Shown: positions 30,690-59,841 of the stretch, piece by piece | Layout: each line of letters starts with the position of its first letter | How positions within the stretch are numbered: the stretch's first letter is position 1 | NCBI GenBank assembly: GCA_963714115.1 | Contig: OY970232.1 | Coordinates: 3,625,997 to 3,689,996 of the forward strand | Length of the DNA: 64,000 bases | Reading direction: 5' to 3' | From: an uncultured Solirubrobacterales bacterium | GTDB lineage: Bacteria; Actinomycetota; Thermoleophilia; Solirubrobacterales; Solirubrobacteraceae | Position numbers and translations under genes: made by a program | The notes under the pieces: model-generated | Database searches by the model: none | What the model was told of the DNA's origin: nothing | What the model saw: the letters and a program-made list of their open reading frames with translations, nothing else

Positions 30690-30829
30690 CGCAGGAACCC
30701 TAGCCGGATCCAGGTAGGCTTGGCCCCTCGTGCGACTCGAGAACGTCTTTGGACATGGGCCTGCCGGTCCCCCGAAAGCCGTTCTCAGAAGGTGCTTGGC
30801 AATGGGTGGTGTTCTCAGAGGAGGGTGTC

Positions 30830-33491: not shown

Positions 33492-33506
33492 GGAAAGGGG
33501 AGTGTG

Positions 33507-38856: not shown

Positions 38857-38937
38857 GCGAGCCTCGCAGACGGCTCACGGAACATGGGCTCACAGTCGGC
38901 ATCCCGCATGACCTGCTCGCAGGACGTCCGCGCATCT

Positions 38938-40803
38938 CTACGCGGGAGGACCGCCGAGGCCCGGGGGTGGGCCGCCGAGGCCCGGAGGCGGGCCACCGAC
39001 ACCTGGGGGCGGACCACCCGCGCCGGGCGGGCCACCAACACCTGGAGGCGGGCCACCCGCAAACGCCAGCGAGGAGTCCCACAGGCCGTCGATCCCCACG
39101 ACCATCCCGCGGGCCTGCTCGATCGTCAAACCGGGCTCCTCGAACAGGCCGTCCGCCTCCCAGCGCTTGGGATCGAGGCTCAGGGCGTAGGGGTTGATCG
39201 GCCGATCGGTCGGGGGTCCCTCCGGCAGCGCCTGCGCGGCCTGGTTGAAGATCGCGACCGCCAACGCCTCCGAGTTGCGCACGTTGGCGCGCAACTCCTC
39301 CAGCAGCGACTCGTCGTCGGGGTACTCCCTGACGAGGCCGACGAGCCCCGCGACCAGCAGCGGGAAGGTGGCGAGCATGCCCGGGTCGCGCGGCTTGCGC
39401 TCGAGCTCGTGCCATTCGCGAAACAGCTTGTGCATGTTGATGTTCAACTTGAAGAGCCGATTCATGTACTCGTCGGCGCGCCTCATGAAGTCGATGTCGG
39501 TGAACCTGTTCTGCGTGAACAGCAGCACGTTCCCGGTGTGGTTGGAGTAGAAATCCCAGGTCAGCAGACCGCACAGCACCCAGGTGTTGCCGAAGACCGG
39601 GTAGGAGTCGCGATAGCGGGAGATGACGTGCTCGAAGAGGCGCTGGTAGAGGTCGTTGTAGTAGTCGACGCGCTCGCCGATCGCCTCGCCGTTCAGGTCG
39701 CGCGTCACGAGATCGGCGGTGAAGGTGTTGCTGTAGCCGATGAAGTCCGAGCCGGGGGAGTAGAAGGGGTCGGCGAACGCTCCCGCCTCCCCCACGAGCG
39801 CCCAGCGGTCGGTCGAGAACATCTGCTTGACCCCGTAGGCGAAGTCTTTGACGCGGAGGAAGTCCTCGATGTCCTGGGGGCGCTCTTCGATCGATGCGGC
39901 GAGCTGCGGCTCGTGCTCGCGCAGCCACCCGAGCAGGCCCTCGAGCTCGTTGATCTCCTCGTAGGGGTGAAAGCGGGGGTCGGCGCACACGCCGATGCTG
40001 ATCGGCCCCGTGGAGAGCGGGATCATCCACACCCAGTACCCCTCCCCCATCAGGTGATTGGTGCTGAACTGGCGGATGCCCGGCTGGGACATCTGCGCCA
40101 TCCACTCAGTGTCATCGGCGCCCCACTGCTCGAGATCGAGCCCCCCTCCAAGTCGCAGCCACGAGGAGTTGATGTGGTGCCCGCAGTCGGCCATCAGGTC
40201 GAGCTTGCGCTTGAGGATGCTGGCGCGGCCCGCGGCGTCCACGACCCAGCGCGCCGTGAGCGTCGCCTCGCGCTCGAACTGCTCGAAGGTCACGCGGTGG
40301 GGATCGCTGTCGAGATCGACCTCCCGCACCCGCGCGCCCTGCTGCAGGTCCACCCCGAGCGCCCGCGCGCGCGCCGCGAGCTTGTTCTCGAAGAGGCCCC
40401 GATCGAGCTGGAAGTTGTCGTGCGGCGGGTACACCGGGGGCCCGGCCTCGACCCGCTTGGTGATGTCCTCGTTGCCGTCCGCGGGCGGGAAGTAGCGCAG
40501 CCCGCACTTGATGATCTGTTCGGAGCGCAGATGCTCCTCCATCCCGACGACCTCGGCGAAGTAGTGGGCGCCGGAGGGGACGGTGGACTCGCCCACCTTG
40601 AACGCCGCCAGCGGCGCCGGCCCCTCGCGCTTCTCGAGCACCACCACCGCCGTCTCGGGCCGCATCTGCTTGAGCTGGATCGCCAGCGTGAGGCCCGCCA
40701 AGCCGCCCCCGAGAATCGCGACGTCGTAGTGCTCCTGCGGCGGGCGCACCGCCGCGAACTCCACAATTGAATCGCCCCGTTCGATGCTCACGCCGGGCGC
40801 CAT
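38938..40803 (-). CDS. Flavin-dependent halogenase with C-terminal GGPPPG tract
   Basis: ILGGGLAG, KVGEST, IIKCG (candidate catalytic Lys), VVDAAGR, YWVWMIP (WxWxIP), GEAGAFADPFYSPG; ATG 1 nt after the upstream stop. Confidence 0.85.
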   Translation of the reverse strand: MAPGVSIERGDSIVEFAAVRPPQEHYDVAILGGGLAGLTLAIQLKQMRPETAVVVLEKREGPAPLAAFKVGESTVPSGAHYFAEVVGMEEHLRSEQIIKCGLRYFPPADGNEDITKRVEAGPPVYPPHDNFQLDRGLFENKLAARARALGVDLQQGARVREVDLDSDPHRVTFEQFEREATLTARWVVDAAGRASILKRKLDLMADCGHHINSSWLRLGGGLDLEQWGADDTEWMAQMSQPGIRQFSTNHLMGEGYWVWMIPLSTGPISIGVCADPRFHPYEEINELEGLLGWLREHEPQLAASIEERPQDIEDFLRVKDFAYGVKQMFSTDRWALVGEAGAFADPFYSPGSDFIGYSNTFTADLVTRDLNGEAIGERVDYYNDLYQRLFEHVISRYRDSYPVFGNTWVLCGLLTWDFYSNHTGNVLLFTQNRFTDIDFMRRADEYMNRLFKLNINMHKLFREWHELERKPRDPGMLATFPLLVAGLVGLVREYPDDESLLEELRANVRNSEALAVAIFNQAAQALPEGPPTDRPINPYALSLDPKRWEADGLFEEPGLTIEQARGMVVGIDGLWDSSLAFAGGPPPGVGGPPGAGGPPPGVGGPPPGLGGPPPGLGGPPA

Positions 40804-40804
40804 C

Positions 40805-41104
40805 CTATACGACCACACCGTCACGCACGTGGAAGCTCGAGCGGCTGGCCTGCGCGAAGCAGGCCCGCAGCGGTGCCAGCAGGCGGGCGTGATCCTCCGA
40901 GGCGTCCCAGGCGCCGGAGCGCTCGATGCTCTCCCACTCGCTGATCACCAGCCAGCGCTCGCCATCCTCGCTTGACTCGCAGAGCTGATGGCCGATCAGC
41001 CCCGGCTCCTGCGCTGCGCGCGCCCGCAGCGCGGCGTAGGCACTCAACAGCTCATCGCGGGAACCGGGCTTGATGCGAACGTCGACGACGAGCCTTACGC
41101 TCAT
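40805..41104 (-). CDS. ABM family protein
   Basis: VRIKPGSRDEL..AY......EPGLIGHQLC......WLVISEWES. Confidence 0.82.
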   Translation of the reverse strand: MSVRLVVDVRIKPGSRDELLSAYAALRARAAQEPGLIGHQLCESSEDGERWLVISEWESIERSGAWDASEDHARLLAPLRACFAQASRSSFHVRDGVVV

Positions 41105-41433
41105 GCCTCGGTCGGTGGGTCCCAGCTATAGAACTCCCGCGCCTGGGCGTCCTTCGGAGAGCGCCATGTCTCGGGGTTGTACGGGGTTATATATGAATCC
41201 AGTTGGGCGCTGATCTCCTTGAACAGGTCGTGATTGCGCACCTTCTCGACGGCGTCGGCGAACTCGTCGTCGGTCTCCACCAGGTGGATGTAGATGTCGT
41301 CGAGCACGAACAGGCTGCGGTGCCTGACCCCGGTGATCCGCGGCAGCTCGGTCTCATCGGACTCGGCGAAGATCCGCGCGACCTCCTCCTCGGCTCCGGG
41401 CTTGATCCGGGCGACGATCACACCTCGCTTGAT
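41101..41433 (-). CDS. TcmI/WhiE-VII-type polyketide cyclase; start probably ATC 41433 (GTG 41421 alternative)
   Basis: IVARIKPG..EEVARIFAESD.TELP...GV..RSLF...DIYIHL...F.EIS..L..YI.PY.P.TWRSP.DA.A.EFY.W. Confidence 0.9.
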   Translation of the reverse strand: MKRGVIVARIKPGAEEEVARIFAESDETELPRITGVRHRSLFVLDDIYIHLVETDDEFADAVEKVRNHDLFKEISAQLDSYITPYNPETWRSPKDAQAREFYSWDPPTEA

Positions 41434-41506
41434 GATGGCCTGCTCCTTTCGCCCGGTTGCCAGTTACTCCGCGACCGGAGCATATATTGTCCACGCGCGA
41501 GCCGCC

Positions 41507-42274
41507 ATGTCACGCCGACGACTGCTGATCATCTCCCGCCATCAGGCAAAGCTGCTGCTCGGCAACCCGGGGGCGCTCGTGATCTTCGTGATCATCCCGC
41601 TGCTGACGATGGTCATCATGAAGTCCACGCAGAAGTCGGCGCTGCTCGGGGCCGGCTACCGCCATGTCAACGGAGCCGAGCAGGCCGTGCCGGGGTTCAC
41701 GGTGATGTTCGCGTTCTTCTGGCTGGTGTTCGTCGGGCGCACGTTCTTCGCCGAGCACGCCTGGGGCACGTGGGACCGCCTGCAGATGATGGCCAGCACG
41801 ACCGAGGTCATCATCGGCAAGCTGCTGCCCTCGTTCGTCGTGATCACCATCCAGATGATCGCGCTGTTCGCGATCGGCGACCTCGTGCTCGGCATGAACT
41901 CGAAGGGCTCGATGGTGACGCTCGTGATCCTCGCGCCGACATTGGCGATCTGCGTATTGGCGCTGACGTTCGCGCTGGTCTCGTTCTGCTCCACGATGAG
42001 CCAGATGGACGCCTCCTCCAACCTGCTGATGCTGGTGTTCGCCTCGCTCGGGGGGGCGCTCGCGCTGACCACGGCGCTGCCACAGTGGGCGCAGACCATC
42101 TCGCCCGCGATCCCCAGCCACTGGGCGATGCAGGCGTCGACCGACGTGATCCTCAAGGGCGACGGGTTCGGCGCGGTGATCGGACCCGTGGGCGTGCTGC
42201 TGGGTTTCGCCGCTCTCTTCGCCGCCCTCGCCGCGATCCGCTTCCGCCCGACCGACCACAAGCTGGTCTCGTGA
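41507..42274 (+). CDS. ABC-2 type exporter permease (no FHA domain)
   Basis: Six TM segments; GAEQAVPGF, EHAWGTWDRL; paralogous to the permease part of 26573..27838. Confidence 0.88.
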   Translation: MSRRRLLIISRHQAKLLLGNPGALVIFVIIPLLTMVIMKSTQKSALLGAGYRHVNGAEQAVPGFTVMFAFFWLVFVGRTFFAEHAWGTWDRLQMMASTTEVIIGKLLPSFVVITIQMIALFAIGDLVLGMNSKGSMVTLVILAPTLAICVLALTFALVSFCSTMSQMDASSNLLMLVFASLGGALALTTALPQWAQTISPAIPSHWAMQASTDVILKGDGFGAVIGPVGVLLGFAALFAALAAIRFRPTDHKLVS

Positions 42275-43833: not shown

Positions 43834-45135
43834 TCAGAGGTCGTACTTGACGCTGTTCGCGAGCGCTCTGCGCCAGAGGGCCGCCGGGACCGCGCGCAGG
43901 GCGGCGTTGCGGACCTTCCCGACGGCGGGGTTCGACAACGACAGCATCTGCCCCCGGCGCCTCGATGTCAGCACGATCTTCGCGCAGCGGGGCATCCGCT
44001 CGCGCTGGAAGGACTCCAGGGCGCCGGCGAGCATCCGCTGATCGCGCAGGCCGCCGGTGAGAGCCAGCTCCTTGGCGAGCACCACCGCGTCCTCCATCGA
44101 GATCCCGGCGCCCTGCCCGATGAAGGGGGTGGTCATGTGCGCCGCGTCGCCGATCAGCACGACCCGGCCCTTCACCCACGTCTGCTCCGGGTCGCGGTCG
44201 CAGATGTCGGTTCTGAGGATCCCCCCCTCCTCGCTCGCCATCACGAGCTGGCGCGCCACCTCGGGGAAGTCGCGCAGGTACTCGGTCAACAGCTCGCGCA
44301 GACCGCTTTCGGGATCCGTGCCCCCCTGCGGTTCGCGTTTCAACAGTCCCCAGTAGATCCTGTCGGCGCCCACCGGGAACATCACGAACTGCCTGCCCGT
44401 GCCGAGGAACGTGCGCGAGGTGTGCGGCGGCAGATCCTCCGGGCTCATCTCGACGACCGCACGCCAGGTGGTGAAGCCCGAGTAGCGCGGCTCCGCGTCG
44501 GCCGCCCCGTAGAGGTGCTTGCGCGCAACCGAGCGGCCGCCGTCGGCGCCGATCAGCAGCGCACCCCGCTCGGTGCGGCCGTCGGCGAACGTCGCCGTGA
44601 CCCCATCGGCGTCCTGCTCGATCGCTACGCACTCCGCGCTCAGCCGCAGCGCGCCCGGCGCGACGGCATCGATCAGCGCCCGCTGAACGTCCGCGCGCAG
44701 CAGGCTGATCGTCGGCGTCCCGTACTCGTCTGCGACCTCTCCCTGCGGAAAGGTGAACAGCAGCTTGCCGTTGATGTCGCAGAACTCCTGAGAGCGCAGC
44801 TCGGTGCCCGCCGCCTCGATCCGGTCGCCGACGCCGAGCTTCTGCAGGGCGCGCAGCGCATTGCTCTGCACGCCCAGCCCGGCGCCCGCCTTGCCGAGCT
44901 CCGCCGCGCGGTCGAACACGCGCGCCTCGATCCCGATGCGCGCCAGCGCGATTGCCGCGGTGAGACCGGCGGGCCCGGCGCCGATGATCAGCACGCGATT
45001 GCTGGCATCGGCTCCCGTGGTCCCGCCGCCCGACTCCCGGCTCCCCGGGGCGCCGGGGATGGAGTCGGGCGACGTGTCCTCCGGTTTCGGCGCCTGCCCA
45101 CTGACCGTGGGATCGGCGGCGTCCGGCTCAGCCAT
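43834..45135 (-). CDS. FAD-dependent monooxygenase (paralog of 24295..25470)
   Basis: IIGAGPAG, IGADGGRS, LIGDAAHMTTPFIGQGA..SMEDA. Confidence 0.9.
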   Translation of the reverse strand: MAEPDAADPTVSGQAPKPEDTSPDSIPGAPGSRESGGGTTGADASNRVLIIGAGPAGLTAAIALARIGIEARVFDRAAELGKAGAGLGVQSNALRALQKLGVGDRIEAAGTELRSQEFCDINGKLLFTFPQGEVADEYGTPTISLLRADVQRALIDAVAPGALRLSAECVAIEQDADGVTATFADGRTERGALLIGADGGRSVARKHLYGAADAEPRYSGFTTWRAVVEMSPEDLPPHTSRTFLGTGRQFVMFPVGADRIYWGLLKREPQGGTDPESGLRELLTEYLRDFPEVARQLVMASEEGGILRTDICDRDPEQTWVKGRVVLIGDAAHMTTPFIGQGAGISMEDAVVLAKELALTGGLRDQRMLAGALESFQRERMPRCAKIVLTSRRRGQMLSLSNPAVGKVRNAALRAVPAALWRRALANSVKYDL

Positions 45136-45598
45136 CCGCGGACTCCCCCGCCTGCGCCTCCAGGCGCTCCTTGATGACCTGCATCTGCACCTTGGTGTTC
45201 TTGTTCATGTACTCCTCGGCGTGCTCGTCGTCGGCGGGCGCCTCGGGCTTCATCGAGAAGTCCTGCACCCAGCGCATCGCGGTGCCCTCGTCGGCCTCCT
45301 CGAAGTACCACTCGATGTTCATGTACTGGAAGGGGCCGGTCTCGATCCGCTTGGACTTCGAGCTGTGCGTCTGGGGATCGGCGGTCCGCTCAGAGGTCCA
45401 GCTCCACACCTGCCCGTCGTAGTCGGGGTCGGGGTGGGTGGTGAGCTTGAAGCGAACGGTGTCCCCGTCCTGCTCCAGCACCTCCGCGGCGGCGTACTCG
45501 CTGAACAGGCTGGGCCAGCTCTCGATGTCCATCATCCGCTCCCACACGAACTCCAGCGGGGCCTGGATGACGACGGAGTTGTCGGTGTGCGCGGCCAT
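45128..45598 (-). CDS. SRPBCC aromatase/cyclase (TcmN-N / WhiE-VI type)
   Basis: HTDNSVVI.AP...VW....DIESWP.LFSEYA, WSWTSER, ETGPF.YM.I.W, RWVQDF.MKP. Confidence 0.92.
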   Translation of the reverse strand: MAAHTDNSVVIQAPLEFVWERMMDIESWPSLFSEYAAAEVLEQDGDTVRFKLTTHPDPDYDGQVWSWTSERTADPQTHSSKSKRIETGPFQYMNIEWYFEEADEGTAMRWVQDFSMKPEAPADDEHAEEYMNKNTKVQMQVIKERLEAQAGESADG

Positions 45599-45601: not shown

Positions 45602-45862
45602 CTACTCCTGTTCTGAGAGGCGCCGGTTTACATAGTCAATCGCCTCGCCCACGCTGTGGATCTCCTCGGCGTCCTCGTCGGGGATCCTGAACCCGTAGTC
45701 CTGCTGCATGGCGAGCTGGATCTCCATGAAGGCGAGGGAATCCAGGCCCATGTCCTCGAACGTCGCTTCGCGGTCGTCCACGACGTCCGCCTCGGGGAGG
45801 CCCACGCGGTCCACGAGGATCCGCTTGAGATCGTCGAATTCGAACTTCGTCTGCTCAGGCAA
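45602..45862 (-). CDS. Type II PKS acyl carrier protein
   Basis: SD gaaggag + TTG; acidic 86 aa; F.DMGLDSLA phosphopantetheine motif. Confidence 0.92.
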   Translation of the reverse strand: MPEQTKFEFDDLKRILVDRVGLPEADVVDDREATFEDMGLDSLAFMEIQLAMQQDYGFRIPDEDAEEIHSVGEAIDYVNRRLSEQE

Positions 45863-45910
45863 TGCCGTCTCCTTCGGTAGCGGTTGATTGATCGACAGGG
45901 GTGTCGGTTT

Positions 45911-47803
45911 TCAGATCGACAGGGCGTCGGTCTGCGGATTGACAGGTGTGCTGGTCTTCGGGTCGACAGGTGTGCTGAGCGCCTGCAGCGCCGGCAGCTG
46001 CTCCAGCGCCGCTCGGCGCCCGGCGGCGAGAAACAGATCGGCGAGGTGGAAGTCTCGCCAATGGGCCGGTCCGAAGCGTGGCGTGATCGTCACGTCGGCG
46101 AGCTCGGCGTGGCGGGCGCTGGTCTCGAGCTGGCTCAAATCCATCACCTCCAGCAACGTGTCGAGCGTGCCGCCCCGCGCCTTGCGCTCGCGGGCGGGGG
46201 GCAGCTCGGGCTGCTCCGGCCACTCCGCCAGCATCTCGGCGCCCATCAGGTTGACCGAGACGGCGAGGTCGGCTCCATCCTCGAACACCGCCCCCGTCGG
46301 CACCGGCACGAGCGCCAGCCCGTCCACCAGGCGGTGTCCGCCGCGCTCGTGCGGGGGGTAGACCCCGGCCAGCGCGGTGGCGGCCAGCAGCGCCTCCCAC
46401 AGGGGCCCCTCGCGCAGGGGGGCGGGGGCGCGATCGGTGAGATCGACCGTCATCACCGCCAGCGGGATCAGCGTGTCGGCGAAGGAGCGCTCCGCGGTGC
46501 TCTCGCGCATCAGCCGGCTCATCGCCTCAAGTGCCGAGCCGCCCCCACCGAGCGAGGTTTTGAACAGCTCGGCCACGTTGTCGGCATCGAAGGTGCCCCG
46601 CAGGGTCGCGTCGATCTCCGCGGCGTCCATGCCCAGCGCCAGGTAGGCGCCCACAATCGCGCCGATGCTGCTGCCCGACACATAATCCACGACGTAGCCG
46701 GCCTCCTCGAGCACTTCCAGCGCGCCCACGTGGGCGTACCCCTTCGCGCCTCCGGCGCCGAGCGCCAGACCCAGCTTTGTTCGGGTGAGATGGCGCGCCA
46801 GCCACGCCTCGTCGGCGGGGGGCATCCCAGCTCCCGCCGGCGGGATGAGCCCGGCGCCGTCCCCGGTGGCCATCGTGGCGCCCGCCGGAGGCAGCCCGGT
46901 GCTGTTCGCCAAGCCATGCCTGGCGTCGTCTGGGGCCGTGAACCCGGCGCCGTCCGCCCGCAGGCAGGTGCGCACCACGCGAATCGGCGCGCCGGGCGGC
47001 CAGTCGCGGCTCGCCGCCACGGCCTCCTCGCCGACCAGCACGGCCTCCACCTGGGCGCCGCGCGTGTTCGGGGCCTGCGCGAGCGCGCCCAGCCGTTCGG
47101 CTTCGCCGGCCGAGCCGACCAGCGCCACCACGCGGTCCACGTCATCGAGCAGCACAGTCACGGTCTCGGGGTCGAGCTCGCCGGGCAGCAGCACGGTGGC
47201 GTGCTCGTCGGTCAGGTCGCCCGCGGCGGTCAGGGCGCCCGCGAACGAGAGGCGCCGGTCCAACCAGACCACCGGGCGGGGGCTCGCGCCGCGCGCGAGG
47301 GACGCCACGCGCGCCGCCGTGGCGGCCATCGCGGGCCCGCTGAGGAGCGCCACGGCCTCACCGCGCTGGCGCTCGACGCGGCGCGCGTTGGCCCTGACGA
47401 GGCTCTCGCTCTGGATGCGGATCAGGTTGATGAGGATCGCCGGGAACCGCTGCGCGAGCGCGAGGAAGCGCTCGGCGTCGAGCTCGAGGGCGGAGGAGGC
47501 GATCGCGGCCACCACGGTGGCGGTGCGCGGCTCGCCGGTGACCGCACCCTGAGCGCCCACCACGTCGCCCTTGCGCTGGCGGGCGAGCACCTCTCCCGCC
47601 GCGGCGTCGGCGCTCCCGGCGAGGACGTGGACGAGGCCCCCGGTGATCAGCCACAGCCGGTCGCTGCGCTCACCCGCGGCGCAGATCTGCTCGCCGGCGG
47701 CGAACGCCCGGGAGCGCATCTGCGCGGCGATCGCCTCGAGCTCCGGCCTGGCCAGCCCGGCGAACAGCGGGCTGGGGGGCAGCGGCGGCGAGGTGTGCGC
47801 CAT
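45911..47803 (-). CDS. Cyclic-nucleotide-binding domain + patatin-like phospholipase fusion
   Basis: N-term SPLFAGL..FAAGEQIC..GE.SDRLWLI..GLV...GEPRTATV; patatin GAGGAKG, GSSIG, VDG. Confidence 0.88.
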   Translation of the reverse strand: MAHTSPPLPPSPLFAGLARPELEAIAAQMRSRAFAAGEQICAAGERSDRLWLITGGLVHVLAGSADAAAGEVLARQRKGDVVGAQGAVTGEPRTATVVAAIASSALELDAERFLALAQRFPAILINLIRIQSESLVRANARRVERQRGEAVALLSGPAMAATAARVASLARGASPRPVVWLDRRLSFAGALTAAGDLTDEHATVLLPGELDPETVTVLLDDVDRVVALVGSAGEAERLGALAQAPNTRGAQVEAVLVGEEAVAASRDWPPGAPIRVVRTCLRADGAGFTAPDDARHGLANSTGLPPAGATMATGDGAGLIPPAGAGMPPADEAWLARHLTRTKLGLALGAGGAKGYAHVGALEVLEEAGYVVDYVSGSSIGAIVGAYLALGMDAAEIDATLRGTFDADNVAELFKTSLGGGGSALEAMSRLMRESTAERSFADTLIPLAVMTVDLTDRAPAPLREGPLWEALLAATALAGVYPPHERGGHRLVDGLALVPVPTGAVFEDGADLAVSVNLMGAEMLAEWPEQPELPPARERKARGGTLDTLLEVMDLSQLETSARHAELADVTITPRFGPAHWRDFHLADLFLAAGRRAALEQLPALQALSTPVDPKTSTPVNPQTDALSI

Positions 47804-47804
47804 C

Positions 47805-49436
47805 TCAGGCCCCCGCCTGGTGGGCGTGGAGGCCGCGGGCCAGCTCGCGCCGGTCGGGCTTGCCCGAGGGAAGCAGCGGCAGCTCGGGCACGACGCTGAC
47901 GCCATAGGGCACCTTGTACCCCGCGATTCCCGCCCGCGCGAAGCCGACGACGTCGCGCCCCGCGAGCCCAGCCCCGGGGCTCGGCACCACGAACGCATGG
48001 AGGGCTTCGCCCATCGCGGCGTGCGGCACGCCGATCACGCTCGCCTGGCCGACCGCGGGGTGGGTCAGCAGGAAGCTCTCGACCTCCGCGGGGAACACGT
48101 TGAAGCCGCCGACGTGGACCACTTCCTTGGCGCGTCCCGCGATCGAGAGGTTACCGGCGGCGTCGATCCCCCCGAGATCCCCGGTGCGAAACCACTCCCC
48201 GTCGAACGCCTCGTCGTGCTCGCGGGGACGGCCGTGATAGCCCAGGGTCACGTAGGGGCCGCGGACCTCGATCTCGCCCATCGCCTCATCTCCCTCGCAC
48301 GGCCTCTCCTCGCTCCCCCCCAGCGCCACATCTCGCTTGCCCGGCACCCCTCCCCCGCTCTCCCCCTCACCCACCACTCCGTGCACCTCTCTCGGCCCTC
48401 CATCCCCCTCGCCCATCCCGCCCCGCCCGCGGCGCACCACCCGGAACTCGTAGCCCGGGAGCGGACGGCCGACCGTGCGGTGGCGGACCTCCGGGGGGTC
48501 CTCGGGGCGGCAGCTGCTCGCCGCGCCGATCTCGGTCATGCCGTACACGTTGAGGATGCGCGCCTCGCGCCGGTCGAGCTCTTCGAGCACCTCCGGCGGG
48601 CAGGAGGATCCGGCGGTGAATCCGCTCCTCACGGGCAGCTCGTCGGTCGCCTTCAGCAGCCGCGCGAACAGGGCCGGCGAGCCGTGCAGCACGCGCGCCT
48701 CGTGACGGCGCAGCGCCGCCACGAGGGGCTGCAGGGAGGTCGTGGAGTCGACCAGCACCGCCTCCCCGCAGGCGGCCAGGTCGCACAGCAGGCAGGCCAG
48801 CCCGAACGCGTGCGAGCCGGGGACGACCATGACGCTCGCAGCCTGCGCGCTCTCGCCCAGCAGGCCGGCGAGGCACTGGCCCTCGGCGACGCCGAGAGCG
48901 TGTGACATCAGCGCGCCCTTCGGCTCCCCGGTGGTGCCGGAGGTGTACATGATCGCCGCCACGTCGGGGTGAAGCGGCGGCGCGGCCTCGCCGGCGGGCC
49001 AGCTCAGCTCCTGGTGGATCTCTCCGAGCTCGTCGACGACGATCCCGGTGGCCAGCGTCGGGATCAGCTCGCCGAGGGCGCCCAGCTCCCGCACGAGCGA
49101 GAACCCCCCGTGGGAGGCGAGCGATATGACCGCCGAGGGCTGCGCGTCGGCGAACACGCGCCGCAGCTCGAAGCTGCGCAGGCGGGCGCTCAACGGGACG
49201 ACGGCGGCGCCCGCGCGCCAGGCGGCGAACAGCGCGATCACGAGGGCGGGCACGTTGGGCGCGATCACCGCGACGCGCTCCCCCGAGCGCTCGCCCAAGC
49301 GCGCGGCGAGCCGGTCCACGGCAGTGTGCAGCTGGTGGTAGGTGAGCTCGACGTCGGCGTGGGCGAGGGCCGGGCGCTGGGGGCTCTGCGACACAGCCGC
49401 CTCCAGTAGAGAGCCGATCTGTGGTGGCTGCGACAT
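47805..49436 (-). CDS. Class I adenylate-forming enzyme (acyl-CoA/ACP ligase)
   Basis: YTSGTTGEPKG, YGMTE, FRTGDLG, GR.KE, GFNVFPAEVE, LPSGKPDR. Confidence 0.92.
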   Translation of the reverse strand: MSQPPQIGSLLEAAVSQSPQRPALAHADVELTYHQLHTAVDRLAARLGERSGERVAVIAPNVPALVIALFAAWRAGAAVVPLSARLRSFELRRVFADAQPSAVISLASHGGFSLVRELGALGELIPTLATGIVVDELGEIHQELSWPAGEAAPPLHPDVAAIMYTSGTTGEPKGALMSHALGVAEGQCLAGLLGESAQAASVMVVPGSHAFGLACLLCDLAACGEAVLVDSTTSLQPLVAALRRHEARVLHGSPALFARLLKATDELPVRSGFTAGSSCPPEVLEELDRREARILNVYGMTEIGAASSCRPEDPPEVRHRTVGRPLPGYEFRVVRRGRGGMGEGDGGPREVHGVVGEGESGGGVPGKRDVALGGSEERPCEGDEAMGEIEVRGPYVTLGYHGRPREHDEAFDGEWFRTGDLGGIDAAGNLSIAGRAKEVVHVGGFNVFPAEVESFLLTHPAVGQASVIGVPHAAMGEALHAFVVPSPGAGLAGRDVVGFARAGIAGYKVPYGVSVVPELPLLPSGKPDRRELARGLHAHQAGA

Positions 49437-49473
49437 GAGCAGGTGCGCCGATGCTCGCCGGGGGCTCAGGACA

Positions 49474-50730
49474 CTAGCTCATGCGCCTGAGCACGAGGGC
49501 GCTGTTGAAGCCCCCGAAGCCGCGTGCGTTGACGAGGATCGTCGAGAGCTCCCCCGCCCGCTCGGAGCCCCGCACGAAGTCGAGCTCGAAGCCCTCCGCG
49601 GGCTCCTCGAGGTTGACGATCGGGGGCAGTGTCCCGTCGCGCATGCAGAGCAGCGCCGCGGCGGTGTCCAGCGAGGCGCCGCCCGCATACATGCGCCCGA
49701 CGCCGCTTTTGGGGGCGAGCACGGGCACGCGCGCGGCGTGCTCGCCGAGGACCGCCTTGATCGCCTGCACCTCCAGCGCGTCGATCTCGGGGACGCCGAA
49801 GGCGTCGGCCACCACCGCGTCGACCTCGCCTGGCGAGATGCCGGCGTTCGCGAGCGCCACCGACATCGCCCGTGCGGACTGCGTTGCGTCCGGTGCCGGG
49901 CGGCCCCAGTGGTGGGCGTCGTTGGTGGCGCCATAGCCCAGGATCTCGCCGTAGATCTGCGGGGCCCCCCGCTCCTGGGCGCTCTGGAGGCTCTCGACCA
50001 GCAGGATCGCTCCCCCCTCGCCGGGGACGTAGCCGTTGGCGCGCGCGTCGAACGGGCGGTAGGCCGCGGCCGGATCGGACTCGGTGCTAAGGAACCCGGT
50101 GCCGAGCTGGCAGGTGAGGGCGTAGGGGCCGATCGGCGCCTCCACGCCGCCGCTCACCGCTGTCTCCACGCCCCGGCGGATCGTGCGCCGCGAGTGGGCG
50201 AGCGCCTCCAGCCCGCCGGCCCCCTCCGCGAGCACCACGCCGGAGGGGCCCTTCATGCCGTGCTTGATCGAGATCTGCCCGGTGGTGGCGGCGTAGAACC
50301 AGGCGATCGACTGGTAGGCGCCCACGAACACCGGCCCCTTCTCCCACAGCGCCTGGATTTCGCGCTGCCCAAACTCGTTGCCGCCCGAGGAGCTGGCGGT
50401 GATCACGCTCATCGAGTAGGGGTCGTGCTCGGTCGGGTCGAACTTGGCGTCGTCAAGCGCGGCCTGGGCGGCGACGAGCGCCATCCACGTCCAGCGGTCG
50501 GTCTGCTTGATCAGCCGCTGGTCCAGGTGGTCGCCGGGCTCGAAGTCCCGCACTTCGCCGGCGAGCGTCACCGGGTAGCGCGAGGGATCGAAGCGCGCGA
50601 TGCGCTCGATCCCGCTCTGCCCCGCACGCGTGGCCGACCACCACGACTCGCGATCCTGGCCGGTGGGGGCGACCACGCCGATGCCGGTGATCACTGCGCG
50701 GCGGTCTGCCGATGGGATCGTGGGGCTCAT
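49474..50730 (-). CDS. Type II PKS chain-length factor (KS-beta)
   Basis: VITGIGVVAP, SSSGGNEFGQ, QSIAWFYAATTGQISI, VPGEGGA, NARGFGGFNSA; lacks the catalytic Cys motif. Confidence 0.95.
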   Translation of the reverse strand: MSPTIPSADRRAVITGIGVVAPTGQDRESWWSATRAGQSGIERIARFDPSRYPVTLAGEVRDFEPGDHLDQRLIKQTDRWTWMALVAAQAALDDAKFDPTEHDPYSMSVITASSSGGNEFGQREIQALWEKGPVFVGAYQSIAWFYAATTGQISIKHGMKGPSGVVLAEGAGGLEALAHSRRTIRRGVETAVSGGVEAPIGPYALTCQLGTGFLSTESDPAAAYRPFDARANGYVPGEGGAILLVESLQSAQERGAPQIYGEILGYGATNDAHHWGRPAPDATQSARAMSVALANAGISPGEVDAVVADAFGVPEIDALEVQAIKAVLGEHAARVPVLAPKSGVGRMYAGGASLDTAAALLCMRDGTLPPIVNLEEPAEGFELDFVRGSERAGELSTILVNARGFGGFNSALVLRRMS

Positions 50731-50825: not shown

Positions 50826-52118
50826 TCACAGCCCCGCGTTGCGGCGCTCGCCGGGGACCGAGAAGATCATCGCCGACTGAAAGCCGCCGAAGCCGCTGCC
50901 GGTCGAGAGCGCCACGTCGATCTGCTTGCGCACCGCAACCTTGGGCGTGTAGTTCAGATCGCACTCGGGGTCGGGGTTCTCCCAGTTAGCGGTGGGCGGC
51001 ACCACGCCGCGGTCGATCGCCAACGCGCAGGTCGCCATCTCGATCGCCCCGATTCCCCCAAGCGAGTGGCCCACCATCGACTTGATCGAGCTGATCGGCA
51101 CGTTGTAGGCGTGCTCGCCAAGGGTGTTCTTGTACGCCGCGGTCTCGTGCCGGTCGTTCTGCTTGGTGCCCGACCCGTGGGCGTTGATGTAGTCGATGTC
51201 CTCCGGCTTGGTTGCGCCCTGCGCCATCGCGTCGAGGATCGCCTCGCTCATCTCGCTCGCGTCGGGCTTCAGCCCAGTCATGTGGAAGGCGTTGCCGCGG
51301 CTGGCGAAGCCGGTTACCTCGCAGTAGATGTGGGCGCCGCGCGCCAGCGCGCTCTGCATCTCCTCGAGGATCAGCACCGCCCCGCCCTCCCCCATCACGA
51401 ACCCGTCGCGGTCGCGGTCGAAGGGGCGCGAGGCGTGCTCGGCGTCGTCGTTGCGCCGCGAGGTCGCCTTGATCGGGTCGAAGCACGCCATCGAGATCGG
51501 CGAGATGCCGGACTCCGCGGCGCCCGCGATCACGATGTCGGCCTCGTCGTCCTGGATCATCTGGTGTCCATAGCCGATCGCGTCGATCCCCGAGGTGCAG
51601 CCGGTCGAGACGACCACCGAGGGCCCGTGCGCGCCGAACTTCAGCGCCACCTCGCTGGCCAGGCTGCTGGGGATCAGCCCCTGGTAGAGGAACGGGGGGG
51701 CATAGTCGGGGTCGACCAACCACTCGCGGCCGTGGTTGGAGACCGCCACGTAGCCGTCCTCGAGCACCATCGTGCCGCCCACCGCCGAGCCGAGACTGAC
51801 CCCGGTGCGATCGAGGTCGATCCTCTCGCTCTCCAGCGCGCTGTCGGTCATCGCCTCCATCGCTGCGGCGACGGCGAACTGGATGTAGCGGTCCATGCGG
51901 CGCGTCTCGTGCTCGCTGAGGCCGGCCGCCAGCGGGTCGAAGTCGCACTCGGCGGCGATCTGGGAGCGAAACCCGGAGGCGTCGAAGAACGTGATGCGAC
52001 GCGTCGCGGTGCGCCCGGCGGTGATCGCCTCCCAGAAGGAGTCGCGCGTGCTGCCACCCGGGGCGACGACGCCGACCCCGGTCACGGCCGTCCTCCTTGG
52101 AATCTGCCCGCTGCTCAT
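50826..52118 (-). CDS. Type II PKS ketosynthase (KS-alpha)
   Basis: STGCTSG (catalytic Cys), YINAHGSGT.QNDRHET, SIKSMVGHSLGG, GSGFGGFQSA. Confidence 0.96.
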   Translation of the reverse strand: MSSGQIPRRTAVTGVGVVAPGGSTRDSFWEAITAGRTATRRITFFDASGFRSQIAAECDFDPLAAGLSEHETRRMDRYIQFAVAAAMEAMTDSALESERIDLDRTGVSLGSAVGGTMVLEDGYVAVSNHGREWLVDPDYAPPFLYQGLIPSSLASEVALKFGAHGPSVVVSTGCTSGIDAIGYGHQMIQDDEADIVIAGAAESGISPISMACFDPIKATSRRNDDAEHASRPFDRDRDGFVMGEGGAVLILEEMQSALARGAHIYCEVTGFASRGNAFHMTGLKPDASEMSEAILDAMAQGATKPEDIDYINAHGSGTKQNDRHETAAYKNTLGEHAYNVPISSIKSMVGHSLGGIGAIEMATCALAIDRGVVPPTANWENPDPECDLNYTPKVAVRKQIDVALSTGSGFGGFQSAMIFSVPGERRNAGL

Positions 52119-52126: not shown

Positions 52127-52531
52127 CTACTCCGTGTCCACGTGCCCGGCGTCGGGGCGGGGCGCGAGCGGCCCGAGGTGGAAGACGATGAACGCCTCCT
52201 CCTCGCCGTCGTTGACGAGGCGGTGGCGCACGTTGATCGGTATCAGCAGCGCCTGGCGGGCCTCCAGTCTGTGGGAGGTGCCGTCCATCTGGGCGTCGAG
52301 CGCGCCGCTGACCACGAAGATGAACTCCTCCGAGTAGGGGTGGTAGTGCTCGCTGATCCGTTCGCCCGGCCCAATCGTGGCCACGCCCATGAAGCCCGAG
52401 GTCGAGCCCGCGGTCTTGGGGCTCAGCAGGGTGCGAACGTCGCCGCCGCGCCGCGTGTCGGCCGGCATCTCATCGACCAGGCGAATCTGCGGCTCGCCGG
52501 CGGGCTCGGACTGGGGCTGCTCGGAGGACAT
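52127..52531 (-). CDS. Cupin-fold polyketide cyclase (TcmJ / WhiE-II type)
   Basis: [53 protein letters not shown]. Confidence 0.93.
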
Positions 52532-53223: not shown

Positions 53224-53313
53224 GGGCGCCTGCGGCGGTGAACAGATGAACCAGGCAAGCCCACCCGGCCGTCCAGGCCGGCGGGTATCGTGGCGTGGGC
53301 ACTGAGGAGCCCT

Positions 53314-55383
53314 GTGGCGCGAAACATCTACATCACGGCGATGGGCCCGCACAGCGGCAAGTCCGTCGTGGCCCTCGGTTTCGTCGAGATGCTCTCCGCG
53401 CGCCTGCAGCGCATCGGCTTCTTCCGCCCGGTCGTCCGCAGCGCCACCGAGCCGGACCCCCAGATCGAGCTGATGCGCGATCGCTACCAGCTTCGCTCCA
53501 GCTACGCAGAGATGCACGGCCCCACAGCCGAGGAGGTGACGGGCCTGAGCGCCCACGGCGCGCACGAGGAGATCGAGAAGCGGGTCCTCGCGGCCTATCG
53601 CGAGCTCGAGCGCCAGTGCGACTTCGTGGTCTGCGAGGGCACCGACTTCGTGGGCTCCGCCCCGGCGCTCGACTTCGACCTGAACGCCAACCTCGCCAAT
53701 CAGCTCGGCTGCCCGGTGCTGGTGGTTATCAACGGGGCGGCAAGCGCCAACGTCGTCGAGGAGGTGCAGCTCGCGCGCGAGGAGCTCCAGCGCAAGGACT
53801 GCGAGCTGTTCGGCGTGATCGTCAACCGCGTCGCGCCGGACGCGGTGGAGGAGGTCGAGCGCCGGCTCGCCCCCAACACCGGCCAGGAGTGGGTCTATGT
53901 GATGCCCGAGCACGCCGAGCTGGGCTACCCGAACGTGGGCGAGATCCAGGCCGCCCTCGACGCCCGCCCGGTGCTGGCGGTGGACGGGATGCTCGAGCGC
54001 GAGGTGCGCGACGTGCGGGTGGCGGCGATGAGCGCCGAGCACTTCATCGAGGATCTCGTGGACGGCGCCCTCGTGGTGGTGCCGGCCGACCGCTCGGACA
54101 TCGTCGTGGCCTGTCTCGCCTCCACCCTCTCCCCCTCCTTCCCCGCCGTCTCCGGACTGCTCTTGACCGGCGGTTACAAGCTCTCCCCCACCGTGCGGGC
54201 ACTGCTCGAGACCTCCCCCTTCCCGGTGTTCGAGATCGACGCGCGCACGCACGTCGTCGCGGCCGCGATCTCGGGCGTGAGGCCGGTGCTGCGGGCCGAG
54301 AACGAGCAGCGCATCGCCACCGCCCTGGGCGTCTTCGAGCACAGCGTGGACAAGGTCGAGCTGCAGATGCGCTTCATGGTGGAGCGCCCCACGCGGATGA
54401 CCCCGACGATGTTCGAGTACGAGCTGATCGAGCGCGCGAAGGCGGCGCGCCGGCACATCGTGCTGCCCGAGGGCGAGGACGAGCGGGTGCTGCGGGCCGC
54501 CGACATCCTGCTGCGCCGCGGCGTGGTCGCCCTGACGGTGCTGGGCGACCCCGAGGCGGTGCGCGCCCGCGCCGCCTCGCTCGGGTTGGACCTCGACGAC
54601 GCGCGGATCGTGGACCCCCTGAGCTCACCCGAGCGCGAGCGCTACGGCGCGGTCTACCACGAGCTGCGCAAGCACAAGGGGATGACCGAGGCGCTCGCCT
54701 TCGACACCCTCGCCGACCCCACCTACTTCGGCACGATGATGGTCCACCTGGGTGAGGTCGACGGCATGGTCTCCGGTGCTGCCCACACCACCGGCGACAC
54801 GATCCGCCCCGCGTTCGAGTTCGTCAAGTCCCGCCCCGGGGTCTCGGTGGTCTCGAGCGTCTTCTTCATGTGCCTCGCCGACCGCGTGCTGGTCTACGGC
54901 GACTGCGCGGTCAACCCCAAACCCGACAGCACCCAGCTCGCGGACATCGCGATCTCCTCCGCCGACACCGCCGCGGCGTTCGGCATCGCCCCGCGGATCG
55001 CGATGCTCTCCTACGCCACCGGGGACTCCGCCAAGGGCGCCCAGGTGGACGCGGTGCGCGAGGCAACCGAGACCGTGCGCCGGCTGCGGGGGGACCTCAA
55101 GGTCGACGGGCCGATCCAGTACGACGCCGCGGTCGACGAGAGCGTCGCCAAGCTGAAGCTGCCCGACAGCGAGGTCGCGGGCAGCGCCACGGTCTTCATC
55201 TTCCCCGACCTCGACACCGGCAACGTCGCCTACAAGGCCGTGCAGCGCTCCTCCGGGGCGCTCGCCATCGGCCCCGTCCTGCAGGGACTGCGCCGGCCGG
55301 TCAACGACCTCAGCCGGGGCTGCTCGGTCACGGACATCGTCAACACGGTGGCGATCACTGCGATCCAGGCGCAGGAGGGGTGA
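53314..55383 (+). CDS. pta: Phosphate acetyltransferase (long form with BioD-like and DRTGG-like domains)
   Basis: SD gaggag + GTG; [64 protein letters not shown]. Confidence 0.95.
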   Translation: MARNIYITAMGPHSGKSVVALGFVEMLSARLQRIGFFRPVVRSATEPDPQIELMRDRYQLRSSYAEMHGPTAEEVTGLSAHGAHEEIEKRVLAAYRELERQCDFVVCEGTDFVGSAPALDFDLNANLANQLGCPVLVVINGAASANVVEEVQLAREELQRKDCELFGVIVNRVAPDAVEEVERRLAPNTGQEWVYVMPEHAELGYPNVGEIQAALDARPVLAVDGMLEREVRDVRVAAMSAEHFIEDLVDGALVVVPADRSDIVVACLASTLSPSFPAVSGLLLTGGYKLSPTVRALLETSPFPVFEIDARTHVVAAAISGVRPVLRAENEQRIATALGVFEHSVDKVELQMRFMVERPTRMTPTMFEYELIERAKAARRHIVLPEGEDERVLRAADILLRRGVVALTVLGDPEAVRARAASLGLDLDDARIVDPLSSPERERYGAVYHELRKHKGMTEALAFDTLADPTYFGTMMVHLGEVDGMVSGAAHTTGDTIRPAFEFVKSRPGVSVVSSVFFMCLADRVLVYGDCAVNPKPDSTQLADIAISSADTAAAFGIAPRIAMLSYATGDSAKGAQVDAVREATETVRRLRGDLKVDGPIQYDAAVDESVAKLKLPDSEVAGSATVFIFPDLDTGNVAYKAVQRSSGALAIGPVLQGLRRPVNDLSRGCSVTDIVNTVAITAIQAQEG

Positions 55384-55713: not shown

Positions 55714-56198
55714 TCGGAGCCTGGGATACGACCCTCGTCTCCCGGCTCTACCCTGGCGGGGCGCTGGAGCGACATATGCTGGAATGCGCCCACGCGGGTG
55801 AACCTATCGCCATCACCGCGCCCACGGTGATGGAGGTCGTCCGTGGCATCCAAGCCACGGTGGCCCGCAAGCCGCACATCGCGCCGGCGCTGGCCTGGTT
55901 CGTCGCCCTCATCGCAAGTGATCTGGTCGAGATCCTGTCGCTGGACCGGCCCGCCGCAATCGTCGCTGGGCGGCTTCGCGCCCTGCATCCGACACCACCC
56001 ACCGGGGCGCGGCGAAAGGGTGTCAAGCCAGAGCAGCGCACCGGCTGGGTACTGGACATCCAGATCGCCGCCTGCGCCTGGACCCACGGCCGCCAAATCG
56101 CCACGGAGAACCTTCGCGACTTCGAAGTCCTACGCGACCTCATCGCACAGATCTACCCCGATACCTCGCCGCTTGTCGTGACCCCGCCGGTGGCCTGA
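55710..56198 (+). CDS. PIN-domain (VapC-like) toxin
   Basis: WDTT, VMEV..G, LDIQIAACA, IATENLRDF acidic PIN residues. Confidence 0.8.
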   Translation: MIGAWDTTLVSRLYPGGALERHMLECAHAGEPIAITAPTVMEVVRGIQATVARKPHIAPALAWFVALIASDLVEILSLDRPAAIVAGRLRALHPTPPTGARRKGVKPEQRTGWVLDIQIAACAWTHGRQIATENLRDFEVLRDLIAQIYPDTSPLVVTPPVA

Positions 56199-56492
56199 CC
56201 CAACGGACTTCGCGTGGTGCGGTGTCGGGGCTGGTTGACGCGCTGATGGCCAGCAGTAGCGCGCCTTCCGCCAAGCAGTGGCCCATTCGAGTCAATGACT
56301 TAACGATCCATTATCATGGATAGTCTGATATATTAGATGCGAATCTCTGGTTGGCTTCTGGTGTGGCTATGCGTCTGGCGGCCAGCGGGAGGCTGAGAAG
56401 TACGACATAGCCGGTGTCGTGAGGTCTTTGCGTTTTGAAGACGGGCCTCACGGTTCGGCAACCGACCTTCCATGGGAAAGGAGCAGTACGAC

Positions 56493-58995
<2,503 letters not shown>

Positions 58996-59060
58996 GCGGG
59001 TGGGTGGACATCGGCCCAATCGGGGGCCAATCGGTGCTACACGGTGCTACACTGAGTCCA

Positions 59061-59351
59061 ATGCCGACTACGCTCCAACGTCATACGATCACCGAGACGC
59101 AGCCTGTCCGGGAGGCGCTCGATGACTTGCGTGCGAGGCTGAACGGTGAACGGATCGACTACGCCGAGCTGGTAATCCTGGGTGCCCGCGCGAAGGCGCG
59201 CCGGCTGCCCGATCGGGGGGAGACCGAGGAGGCCAGGAGGGCTCGTAAGGAGCTCGCTGAATGGATCCGCAACGGCAATCCAGACATGGTTGACGTCGCG
59301 GCAGCCGATGAGGTCAAGCATCTCGGTCTGATCGCCGACTACGACGAGTAG
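59061..59351 (+). CDS. Probable antitoxin
   Basis: MPTTLQRHTITET..V.EALD; directly upstream of a PIN gene; TACACT -10 7 nt upstream. Confidence 0.7.
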   Translation: MPTTLQRHTITETQPVREALDDLRARLNGERIDYAELVILGARAKARRLPDRGETEEARRARKELAEWIRNGNPDMVDVAAADEVKHLGLIADYDE

Positions 59352-59352
59352 C

Positions 59353-59772: not shown

Positions 59773-59841
59773 TCGCCGGCAGTTGCGCCGCGCCGGTGCT
59801 CCTCCAGGGGCGCCGGGGTCGGATTGCGGCCCCATCAGGCA

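Follow-up and report, generated by a model that had tools for sequence, protein, structure and literature searches.

A conserved adenylate-forming ligase and cyclic-nucleotide-domain patatin gene pair between the chain length factor and acyl carrier protein genes of a type II polyketide cluster in Solirubrobacterales

The window analysed here, a stretch of 64,000 nucleotides of contig OY970232.1 from an uncultured Solirubrobacterales bacterium, carries a type II polyketide synthase (PKS) operon in which the genes of an adenylate-forming (ANL) ligase and of a patatin with a cyclic-nucleotide (cNMP)-binding domain lie between those of the chain length factor (CLF) and the acyl carrier protein (ACP). 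According to the listing of open reading frames (ORFs) and to Pfam, eight densely packed genes, all on the minus strand, form this single operon, which extends from a cupin gene to a FAD-dependent monooxygenase gene and which, judging by its gene content, is part of a whiE/sch/cur-type (spore-pigment-like) cluster spanning about 35 kb. The contiguity of the ketosynthase (KS), CLF and ACP genes, usual even if not obligatory, is thus broken by 3.6 kb of ligase and patatin, and CLF and ACP are likewise separated in all related loci. The order KS-CLF-ligase-patatin-ACP-SRPBCC on one strand, reported in the initial annotation of the window, was borne out by ORFs and Pfam and recurs in relatives, hence it does not represent a chance arrangement. 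Considering the position kept, the purifying selection, the translational coupling and the intact motifs, both inserted genes look functional and linked to the pathway.

We propose, tentatively and with a probability of about 0.4, that the ligase loads an acid on the ACP (or on CoA) and that the patatin hydrolyses or transfers the carrier-bound acyl group, in a manner resembling the EncN/EncL pair and tied to cAMP. This proposal builds on the content and order of the genes, their conservation, the purifying selection acting on them, the intact catalytic motifs and the association with an adenylyl cyclase gene; from these we infer which substrates are used, that the ACP is acted upon and whatever role cAMP may have. 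In particular, a two-gene accessory module would have become fixed between CLF and ACP in the ancestor of these Solirubrobacterales clusters. The ANL ligase would adenylate a carboxylic acid and hand it to the cluster ACP (or to CoA), and the delivered acid could serve as a primer other than acetate or be attached as an acyl decoration. The patatin, a putative Ser379/Asp494 hydrolase, would act on carrier-protein thioesters, editing mis-primed ACP or releasing or transferring the bound acyl or polyketide group. Moreover, the module may be placed in a local cAMP circuit, made up of a divergent adenylyl cyclase and a PNPOx-fold protein whose cAMP site is canonical, even though direct gating of the patatin by cAMP is uncertain because its nucleotide-binding domain is degenerate.

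Conservation of the inserted gene pair

The genome that carries the window (G000) consists of a single contig of 3.75 Mb with a GC content of about 70%, and its nearest relatives are metagenome-assembled genomes labelled Solirubrobacterales or Solirubrobacteraceae. A survey of one genome per species turned up patatin relatives at 21 loci, every one of them in Solirubrobacterales, and the full order cupin-KS-CLF-ligase-patatin-ACP-SRPBCC is present in 17 of these (L012-L024, L027-L030), mostly beside pta. By searching 400 genomes of the order for CLF, we found a second family, f3, in which the loci L039, L040 and L041 show a gene order identical to that of the window operon, with identities to the window proteins of 78-83% for KS, 68-71% for CLF, 49-52% for the ligase and 45-49% for the patatin. 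Furthermore, protein searches in soil metagenomes retrieved many more homologues of ligase and patatin (52-62% identity), and the operon order is unchanged in all three PKS-side contigs examined (L044, L045 and L051).

The two inserted genes are closely coupled. In the window sequence GCC TGA G ATG GCG, the stop codon of the ligase (47807-47805) is separated by a gap of 1 nt from the ATG of the patatin (47803-47801), and the TGA-G-ATG coupling claimed in the initial annotation is therefore correct; the three metagenome contigs feature overlaps of 4 nt instead. The listed ORF of 695 amino acids (45911-47998) begins too far upstream, within the ligase, the true start of the patatin being the ATG at 47803.

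Whether compared by KS, CLF, ligase or patatin, the loci fall by pairwise identity into the same three clades, a congruence in line with co-inheritance rather than with repeated insertion. Between close relatives, the dN/dS values of the ligase (0.13-0.28) and of the patatin (0.14-0.27) denote purifying selection, and those of KS and ACP are 0.03-0.11 and 0-0.04, respectively. As far as can be judged from these comparisons, ligase and patatin are old, co-inherited and under selection, yet less constrained than the PKS core.

The operon of locus L042 (G326:C50, 7912-10931) does not contain the ligase; the CLF stop codon is followed, after 20 nt, by the ATG of the patatin, and no ligase homologue was detected at E<=1e-30 in the G326 assembly, which is 91% complete. 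Since G326 keeps the patatin without the ligase, the patatin appears to be the more persistent partner. The patatins of L042 and of L041, which belongs to the same genus, are located on long branches (0.62 and 0.88, respectively). We also noticed that L032 is a degraded copy of the operon and that L032, L043, L013 and L017 show split or partial matches to KS, CLF or ligase, which represent either decaying clusters or frameshift errors of the assemblies.

The loss of the ligase in one lineage, the evolution of both genes at a faster pace than the core PKS genes and the occurrence of related patatins outside type II PKSs would all be expected if ligase and patatin had a part in lipid or acyl metabolism that has nothing to do with the polyketide and were merely carried in the operon. 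We consider this very unlikely, as their position between CLF and ACP is held across family-level divergence and in metagenomes, the genes stay translationally coupled, a sample of 400 genomes gave no member of the ligase subfamily outside these clusters, and the patatin clade that is not linked to a PKS belongs to a biosynthetic operon as well.

Sequence features of the ligase, the patatin and the minimal PKS

The ligase presents the motifs A3 (YTSGTTGEPKG), A5 (YGMTE), A7 (FRTGD) and A8 and the A10 lysine (Lys526), all conserved across 30 orthologues. When it was compared with NCBIfam, no model reached its cut-off; the best match below threshold is a subfamily of long-chain fatty-acid-CoA ligases (300 bits, with a cut-off of 476), and the neighbours in the PDB include a feruloyl/fatty-acyl-CoA synthetase, an oxalate-CoA ligase, MenE and a salicylate-AMP ligase. 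Because the NCBIfam models remain below threshold and the PDB neighbours are of mixed specificity, we make no substrate call, and on the grounds of sequence the enzyme is regarded as an ANL ligase outside any named subfamily. Moreover, among 400 sampled Actinomycetota genomes, with three candidates scored per genome, no ligase homologue was found at E<=1e-55 beyond the PKS-linked copies, so that the subfamily looks specific to these clusters.

A Gly/Glu-rich insertion of the ligase (Table 1) is hypervariable in both length and sequence and is missing in L012, L023, L045, P0070 and others. The possibility that it corresponds to an insertion of the fatty acyl-AMP ligase type was ruled out, since this stretch of about 50 residues is of low complexity, hypervariable and often absent; we read it as a putative disordered loop.

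The patatin matches the Pfam family Patatin (PF01734) with 91.4 bits, compared to a gathering cut-off of 27.7. In 27 sequences, no variation is seen at Ser379 (in GSSIG), at Asp494 (in VDG) or in the oxyanion loop GGAKG, and the two catalytic residues align with the dyad of PlpD. In the AlphaFold2 model (pLDDT 76.7), a cNMP-binding domain is followed by an α/β domain, a disordered linker and the patatin domain. The middle domain, when modelled alone (pLDDT 82), gave no Foldseek match in the PDB at E<=0.001 and showed resemblance only to generic Rossmann-like folds. No Acyl_transf_1 match was found in the protein with Pfam, and no signal peptide or membrane segment was seen in its sequence by eye, with no predictor applied. 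The G000 genome contains no other patatin of this family.

Two of the three domains of the patatin (cNMP-binding and α/β) are not catalytic, and in the biosynthesis of aromatic polyketides ANL enzymes do act as tailoring ligases. It could be hypothesized on these grounds that the ligase is a late tailoring enzyme, acting as an amide or ester synthetase or in the CoA activation of an intermediate, and that the patatin is mainly a cAMP-responsive regulator or scaffold with little catalysis. Such a division of roles is highly improbable in our opinion, given that the Ser, Asp and oxyanion residues are invariant in all clades and that the catalytic domain is the best-conserved part of the patatin (67-92%, versus 41-83% for the cNMP domain).

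Different from the catalytic residues, the phosphate-binding cassette of the cNMP domain departs from the canonical pattern. In the alignment of VGAQGAVTGEPRTAT with the corresponding FGEMALISGEPRSAT of MloK1, the glutamate is replaced by Ala84, and Arg93, Thr94 and Ala95 are retained (VGAQ...EPRTA in the window). The atypical cassette, with GAQ for GE, to which the initial annotation had drawn attention, was thus confirmed, and in addition it is not conserved between clades: three f3 loci have GA[ILT] with a histidine instead of the arginine, L042 has GTG with the arginine retained, and the clade of L043-L045 has GE[IV] with a tyrosine or a glutamine instead of the arginine. As no sampled clade keeps both the canonical glutamate and the canonical arginine, canonical binding of cAMP by the patatin is doubtful.

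With regard to the minimal PKS, the Cys-His-His triad of KSα (Cys174, His314 and His351) is intact in the alignment with the actinorhodin (act) KS, 1TQY_A, and the CLF is devoid of the active-site cysteine. In the alignment with the act CLF (1TQY_B), Gly170 of the CLF replaces Gln161 ('vlaeGaggle' versus 'lvaeQaggld'), and a glycine occupies this position in all 24 CLFs of the family. Gln161 of the act CLF has been linked to decarboxylative priming. The need for this residue in priming is said to be contested, the work of Bisang in 1999 and that of Dreier and Khosla in 2000 reportedly being at variance. Across CLF representatives at 50% identity, the act-161 position is occupied by Q, S, G, A, E or R; in particular, it is a glutamate in the Streptomyces-like whiE-type CLFs of L055-L057 (G636, G720 and G478; AADEAGGLDAL) and a glycine in the angucycline-like locus L081, where no ligase was found among the 8 ORFs scanned. 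Non-Gln residues being so frequent in related CLFs, a glutamine would not be strictly required of a CLF and Gly170 is not diagnostic, and its use as proof of non-acetate priming was dropped in favour of that of a weak hint. As for the ACP, a tblastn search of the G000 genome with the cluster ACP as the query gave no second ACP-like match above 50 bits.

A separate type II PKS locus of a 7-Mb actinomycete, L080 (G730:C1:1183000-1202900), has an alanine at the Gln161 position of its CLF and, downstream of it, two AMP-binding ligases and a Ketoacyl-synt_2 protein; it may represent a further ligase-primed system.

Sister patatins, cAMP-linked neighbours and known systems

In the patatin tree, the rows labelled by genomic context are separated by a single change, with the PKS-linked rows distributed in three groups and all four rows of a second context grouped in a single clade with a support of 100, whose 61 rows are mostly of no known context. 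The second context (L026, 1587-10343; L031, L049 and L050) is a co-directional operon headed by a cNMP-patatin of the sister clade, followed by a trpF-like and a trpC-like gene, a stand-alone adenylation enzyme of the amino-acid type and a carrier protein of 83 amino acids (DSLG); the remainder consists of a trpD-like gene, a trpA-like gene, a cupin resembling ectoine synthase and a PigA/RedW-like dehydrogenase. It looks like an uncharacterised cluster of the pyrrole or indole type, and PKS and ligase are both absent from the genomes G424 and G425, which carry it. The adenylation domain of this operon also has a Gly/Asp-rich insertion. The occurrence of homologues with 59% identity beside prs and trp-like genes raised the possibility that the patatin is a relocated housekeeping gene, which we rejected since the context is another biosynthetic operon; its trp-like paralogues are only 26-33% identical to the trp genes of G000 itself. 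Rather than lipid metabolism, the two patatin clades appear to share a carrier-protein pathway that includes an adenylating enzyme.

The sister clade also bears on the origin of the putative primer. A patatin acting as a phospholipase or lysophospholipase could free a membrane fatty acid upon a cyclic-nucleotide signal, and the ligase could then activate it as the starter of the PKS, giving an alkyl-substituted product. The family membership of the patatin and its intact dyad, the long-chain fatty-acid-CoA ligase families among the top sub-threshold NCBIfam matches of the ligase, the translational coupling of the two genes, the cyclase that adjoins the operon and the lack of Gln161 in the CLF are all in agreement with this salvage of lipids. 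We nevertheless judge it unlikely: G326 retains the patatin without the ligase, the sister clade is found beside an amino-acid-type adenylation enzyme and a peptidyl carrier protein, where no supply of fatty acids is needed, no signal peptide or membrane segment could be recognised by eye in the patatin, and neither a KSIII nor a second ACP, both typical of fatty-acyl-primed type II PKSs, was found in the cluster. The initial annotation had proposed a signal-triggered hydrolysis of lipids that supplies a fatty-acyl starter or tailoring group or, as an option, an ACP thioesterase or editor. The signal trigger gains from the adjacent cyclase and from the canonical cassette of the PNPOx-fold protein, the lipid-derived starter is now less favoured, and the ligase-less G326 and the sister-clade operon with its carrier protein would favour the thioesterase or editor over the supply of a fatty-acyl starter.

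A different fate of the ACP-bound chain can also be envisaged, in which the patatin releases the finished polyketide or passes it on to an acceptor, either a hydroxyl or a lipid, and the ligase re-activates the carboxylate for the formation of an ester or amide, for instance between a pigment and the envelope. Patatin-fold enzymes can work as transacylases; on the other hand, whiE-type pathways are thought to free their products by cyclisation, the cluster shows no recognisable genes that would make a glycerol, lipid or sugar acceptor, and no precedent is known for a patatin in off-loading. This fate is quite unlikely on balance, despite the persistence of the patatin after the loss of the ligase, the need for off-loading of a carrier-bound acyl group in the operon of the sister clade and the two FHA-domain ABC exporters of the cluster. 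For a type II PKS, a discrete thioesterase is reported to act in off-loading (PMC7492732), which is in agreement with such a fate.

The stand-alone, predicted class III adenylyl cyclase is divergent from the operon, with a gap of 116 bp to the cupin start. Its top match in the PDB is Ma1120 (4wp3; E 7e-34), with which Asp34 and Asp78 (metal binding), Lys74 (substrate specification) and Asn135 and Arg141 (transition state) align. The cyclase adjoins the operon in all 18 genomes of the window clade with enough flank, at 80-100% identity, and it is also found in L039 (54%) and L051 (42%). A second cNMP-binding domain is fused to the PNPOx-fold protein and shows the canonical cAMP cassette FGELAIL...RTAT. 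In the f3 loci L041 and L042, the PNPOx-cNMP gene and that of the flavin reductase adjoin the cupin gene directly, and because of this location beside the PKS operon we assign the pair to the same cluster family. L042 has, in addition, a Crp-type regulator, and L045 an NDH-2 with a cNMP domain. On the evidence of these genes, cAMP signalling is a recurrent element of the cluster family, whichever protein reads cAMP.

It is possible to hypothesize that a second messenger acts here directly on type II PKS enzymes: the cAMP of the cluster cyclase, read by the PNPOx protein as a clear candidate and possibly by the divergent nucleotide-binding domain of the patatin, would switch the patatin between the clearing and the releasing of acyl groups on the ligase-loaded ACP, gating initiation or release at the post-translational level. 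We regard this extension as doubtful. If true, it would imply a family of carrier-protein-directed patatin thioesterases in PKS and NRPS-like (nonribosomal peptide synthetase-like) operons of Thermoleophilia.

Several features of the data weigh against the proposal that the ligase loads the ACP and the patatin acts on the bound acyl group. Patatins are known as hydrolases of acyl lipids, and for none is an action on acyl-ACP known. The evolutionary rates of ligase and patatin exceed those of KS and ACP two- to threefold. At least one lineage, that of G326, whose CLF still has the glycine, does without the ligase, and its loss there argues against the ligase as the only route to the primer; the glycine itself is weak evidence for a primer supplied by the ligase. 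Furthermore, the matches to fatty-acid-CoA ligases below the cut-off would fit the salvage of lipids equally well, and the cassette of the patatin has lost the glutamate predicted to bind the ribose, and in other clades the arginine.

The closest functional parallel to the proposed pair is found among the initiation modules of type II PKSs, which comprise ligases (EncN and AuaEII) and acyltransferase (AT)-like editing thioesterases (ZhuC and EncL), as reviewed in PMC12664062. As in the enterocin pathway, with the benzoate:ACP ligase EncN and EncL (PMC12664062), an ANL ligase and an enzyme of the Ser-hydrolase type accompany a type II minimal PKS, and the two would together determine and control which primer the ACP carries. 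Unlike EncL, the hydrolase identified here is a patatin (PF01734, with a Ser/Asp dyad) that carries cNMP-binding and α/β domains and no Acyl_transf_1 domain, and, unlike those of EncN and EncL, the two genes are placed between CLF and ACP. The motifs A3, A5, A7 and A8 and the A10 lysine expected of an EncN-type ligase are all present, although the ligase does not occur throughout these PKSs, G326 being devoid of it. The parallel with EncL, ZhuC and DpsD may thus be taken in the sense of 'works like', not of membership in the same family. In SCOP, the patatin fold and the FabD acyltransferase fold are placed in one superfamily, 'FabD/lysophospholipase-like'. The R1128 (ZhuH/ZhuC/ZhuG) and daunorubicin (DpsC/DpsD) systems also have accessory enzymes by the minimal PKS, which bring a non-acetate primer and remove acetyl-ACP; different from them, a ligase takes the place of the priming ketosynthase in the window, and KSIII and second ACP were not found in the cluster. 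The gene set is shared with the whiE/sch/cur clusters of Streptomyces, with CLF and KS 49-50% and 60-61% identical to those of L055-L057, respectively; in those loci, however, neither a ligase nor a patatin separates CLF from ACP, and the host here belongs to Thermoleophilia.

As regards the patatin, the succession of cNMP-binding and patatin domains resembles that of the NTE family, and homologues are in fact called 'NTE family protein' by JGI. The catalytic domain matches PlpD of Pseudomonas aeruginosa (phmmer 3.5e-15; Foldseek TM 0.80). Unlike PlpD and the NTE family, the patatin of the window is encoded in an operon alongside PKS or carrier-protein genes, contains an additional α/β domain and a cassette without the glutamate, and is found in a context that implies no lipid substrate. 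A cNMP-binding domain at the N terminus is also present in mycobacterial Pat (Rv0998, or KATmt), which carries out a cAMP-dependent acetylation of ANL ligases of the FadD type. The cNMP domain of the patatin matches the NCBIfam model of Pat with 6.5e-8, the catalytic domain of Pat being a GNAT and not a patatin. The association of a patatin hydrolase with a neighbouring cyclase recalls CapV (PMC6042076) and CapE of the cyclic-oligonucleotide-based antiphage signalling system (CBASS), and CapE has rank 12 among the Foldseek matches. However, CapV and CapE bind cyclic di- or oligonucleotides directly and without a CRP-type domain, are paired with CD-NTase cyclases and kill the cell, whereas the cyclase described here is of class III and the context is biosynthetic. 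Finally, cNMP-binding shells of family 2B encapsulins are conserved in clusters for 2-methylisoborneol and geosmin (10.1101/2024.04.23.590730 and PMC13739066) and provide a precedent for proteins with such a domain in actinobacterial biosynthetic clusters, and the corresponding model (encap_f2b) matches the cNMP domain of the patatin with 2.2e-9. The encapsulin case differs in that the clusters are those of terpenes, the protein is a shell component and not an enzyme, and in the text consulted no cyclase is reported in the cluster.

Cluster surroundings and significance

The positions of the features are collected in Table 1. The gene set typical of whiE/sch/cur clusters is complete according to Pfam, with the minimal PKS, the cupin, a single-domain SRPBCC cyclase, a TcmI-like cyclase, a SchA/CurD protein and a FAD hydroxylase. 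The cluster also encodes further ABM proteins and, as two pairs, the FHA-domain ABC exporters (Pfam). Homologues of the MCAT (60-67%) occur in the retrieved operon flanks of L039-L042, L044, L045 and L051, and a homologue of the biotin carboxylase (87%) is present in L039 too; the acetyl-CoA carboxylase genes are possibly the source of malonyl-CoA of the cluster. With phosphoketolase and pta at the cluster edges and the carboxylase and β-carbonic anhydrase genes inside, these enzymes could represent an in-built supply line of acetyl-CoA, bicarbonate and malonyl-CoA.

Table 1. Coordinates and supporting matches of the features annotated in the window
Feature	Coordinates	Strand	Evidence
Phosphoketolase, cluster edge	15163-17949
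Acetyl-CoA carboxylase genes (carboxyltransferase, biotin carboxyl carrier protein, biotin carboxylase)	18980-22733	+	Pfam
PNPOx-fold protein fused to a cNMP-binding domain	22822-23685	+	Pfam
Flavin reductase, after PNPOx-cNMP	23715-24215	+	Pfam
MCAT (malonyl-CoA:ACP transacylase)	29239-30174	-	Pfam Acyl_transf_1
β-Carbonic anhydrase	30177-30689	-	Pfam Pro_CA
SDR/KR (short-chain dehydrogenase/ketoreductase)	30755-31567	+	Pfam adh_short
SchA/CurD-like protein (whiE-ORFI-type)	33504-33878	+	Pfam SchA_CurD 6.8e-33
Two flavoenzymes, one halogenase-like	37468-40824		Pfam
ABM monooxygenase	40805-41104	-	Pfam ABM 7.6e-15
TcmI-like cyclase	41101-41421	-	Pfam Cyclase_polyket 5.7e-41
ABC-2 permease	41294-42274	+
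FAD-dependent monooxygenase, last gene of the operon	43834-45135	-	Pfam FAD_binding_3 1e-36
SRPBCC aromatase/cyclase, single-domain, whiE-ORFVI-like	45128-45598	-	Pfam Polyketide_cyc, Polyketide_cyc2
ACP	45602-45862	-	Pfam PP-binding 1.3e-12; Ser42 in GLDSLAF
cNMP-domain patatin, 630 aa	45911-47803	-	cNMP_binding 3.8e-13, Patatin 1.1e-25
Patatin, catalytic domain (residues 329-609)	45977-46819	-	Foldseek top match PlpD, TM 0.80
Patatin, middle α/β domain (residues 149-280)	46964-47359	-	pLDDT ~90 in full model
Patatin, cyclic-nucleotide-binding domain (residues 19-146)	47366-47749	-	Fold matches CRP, GlxR, MloK1
ANL (adenylate-forming) ligase, 543 aa	47805-49436	-	AMP-binding 3.8e-66, AMP-binding_C 3.2e-16
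Ligase, Gly/Glu-rich insertion (residues ~335-386)	48279-48434	-	Between conserved PLPGYEFRV and GEIEVRG
CLF (KSβ)	49474-50730	-	Top PDB match act CLF 1TQY_B, E 2e-114
KSα	50826-52118	-	Pfam ketoacyl-synt N and C; act KS 1TQY_A, E 6e-154
Cupin (TcmJ / whiE-ORFII-like), first gene of the operon	52127-52531	-	Pfam Cupin_2 1.3e-17; position kept in all related loci
Stand-alone class III adenylyl cyclase, 191 aa	52648-53223	+	Pfam Guanylate_cyc 8e-15
pta, right edge of the cluster	53290-55383

The ORF of the TcmI-like cyclase overlaps that of the ABC-2 permease on the opposite strand by about 130 nt, and one start codon of this pair was probably called too early. Just beyond pta, at 56000-60000, the GC content is 0.54-0.62, compared to about 0.70 elsewhere, and this region looks like foreign or mobile DNA. 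An Rfam scan of the window gave a single tRNA and nothing else.

In full-text searches, no paper was found that pairs patatin with type II polyketides, nor patatin with ketosynthase, ACP and aromatic polyketides, and a 2026 paper on KS evolution makes no mention of Thermoleophilia, ligases or Gln. The core of the cluster is that of an ordinary whiE-type type II PKS, and what appears to be new is the presence of a ligase and a patatin within the core, together with a cyclase of its own.

Type II PKSs are usually seen as a fixed KS-CLF-ACP core accompanied by few initiation devices, namely, a priming ketosynthase, AT-like editors and a few ligases. The cluster family described here is abundant in soil and unstudied, and its compact organisation suits direct testing. 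If the patatin acts on acyl-ACP, carrier-protein pathways would gain a new fold for editing and off-loading, which would also provide a new handle for primer engineering. If cAMP controls the patatin, the cluster would offer a rare case of second-messenger wiring of a biosynthetic cluster at the level of the enzyme, and not via a global regulator.

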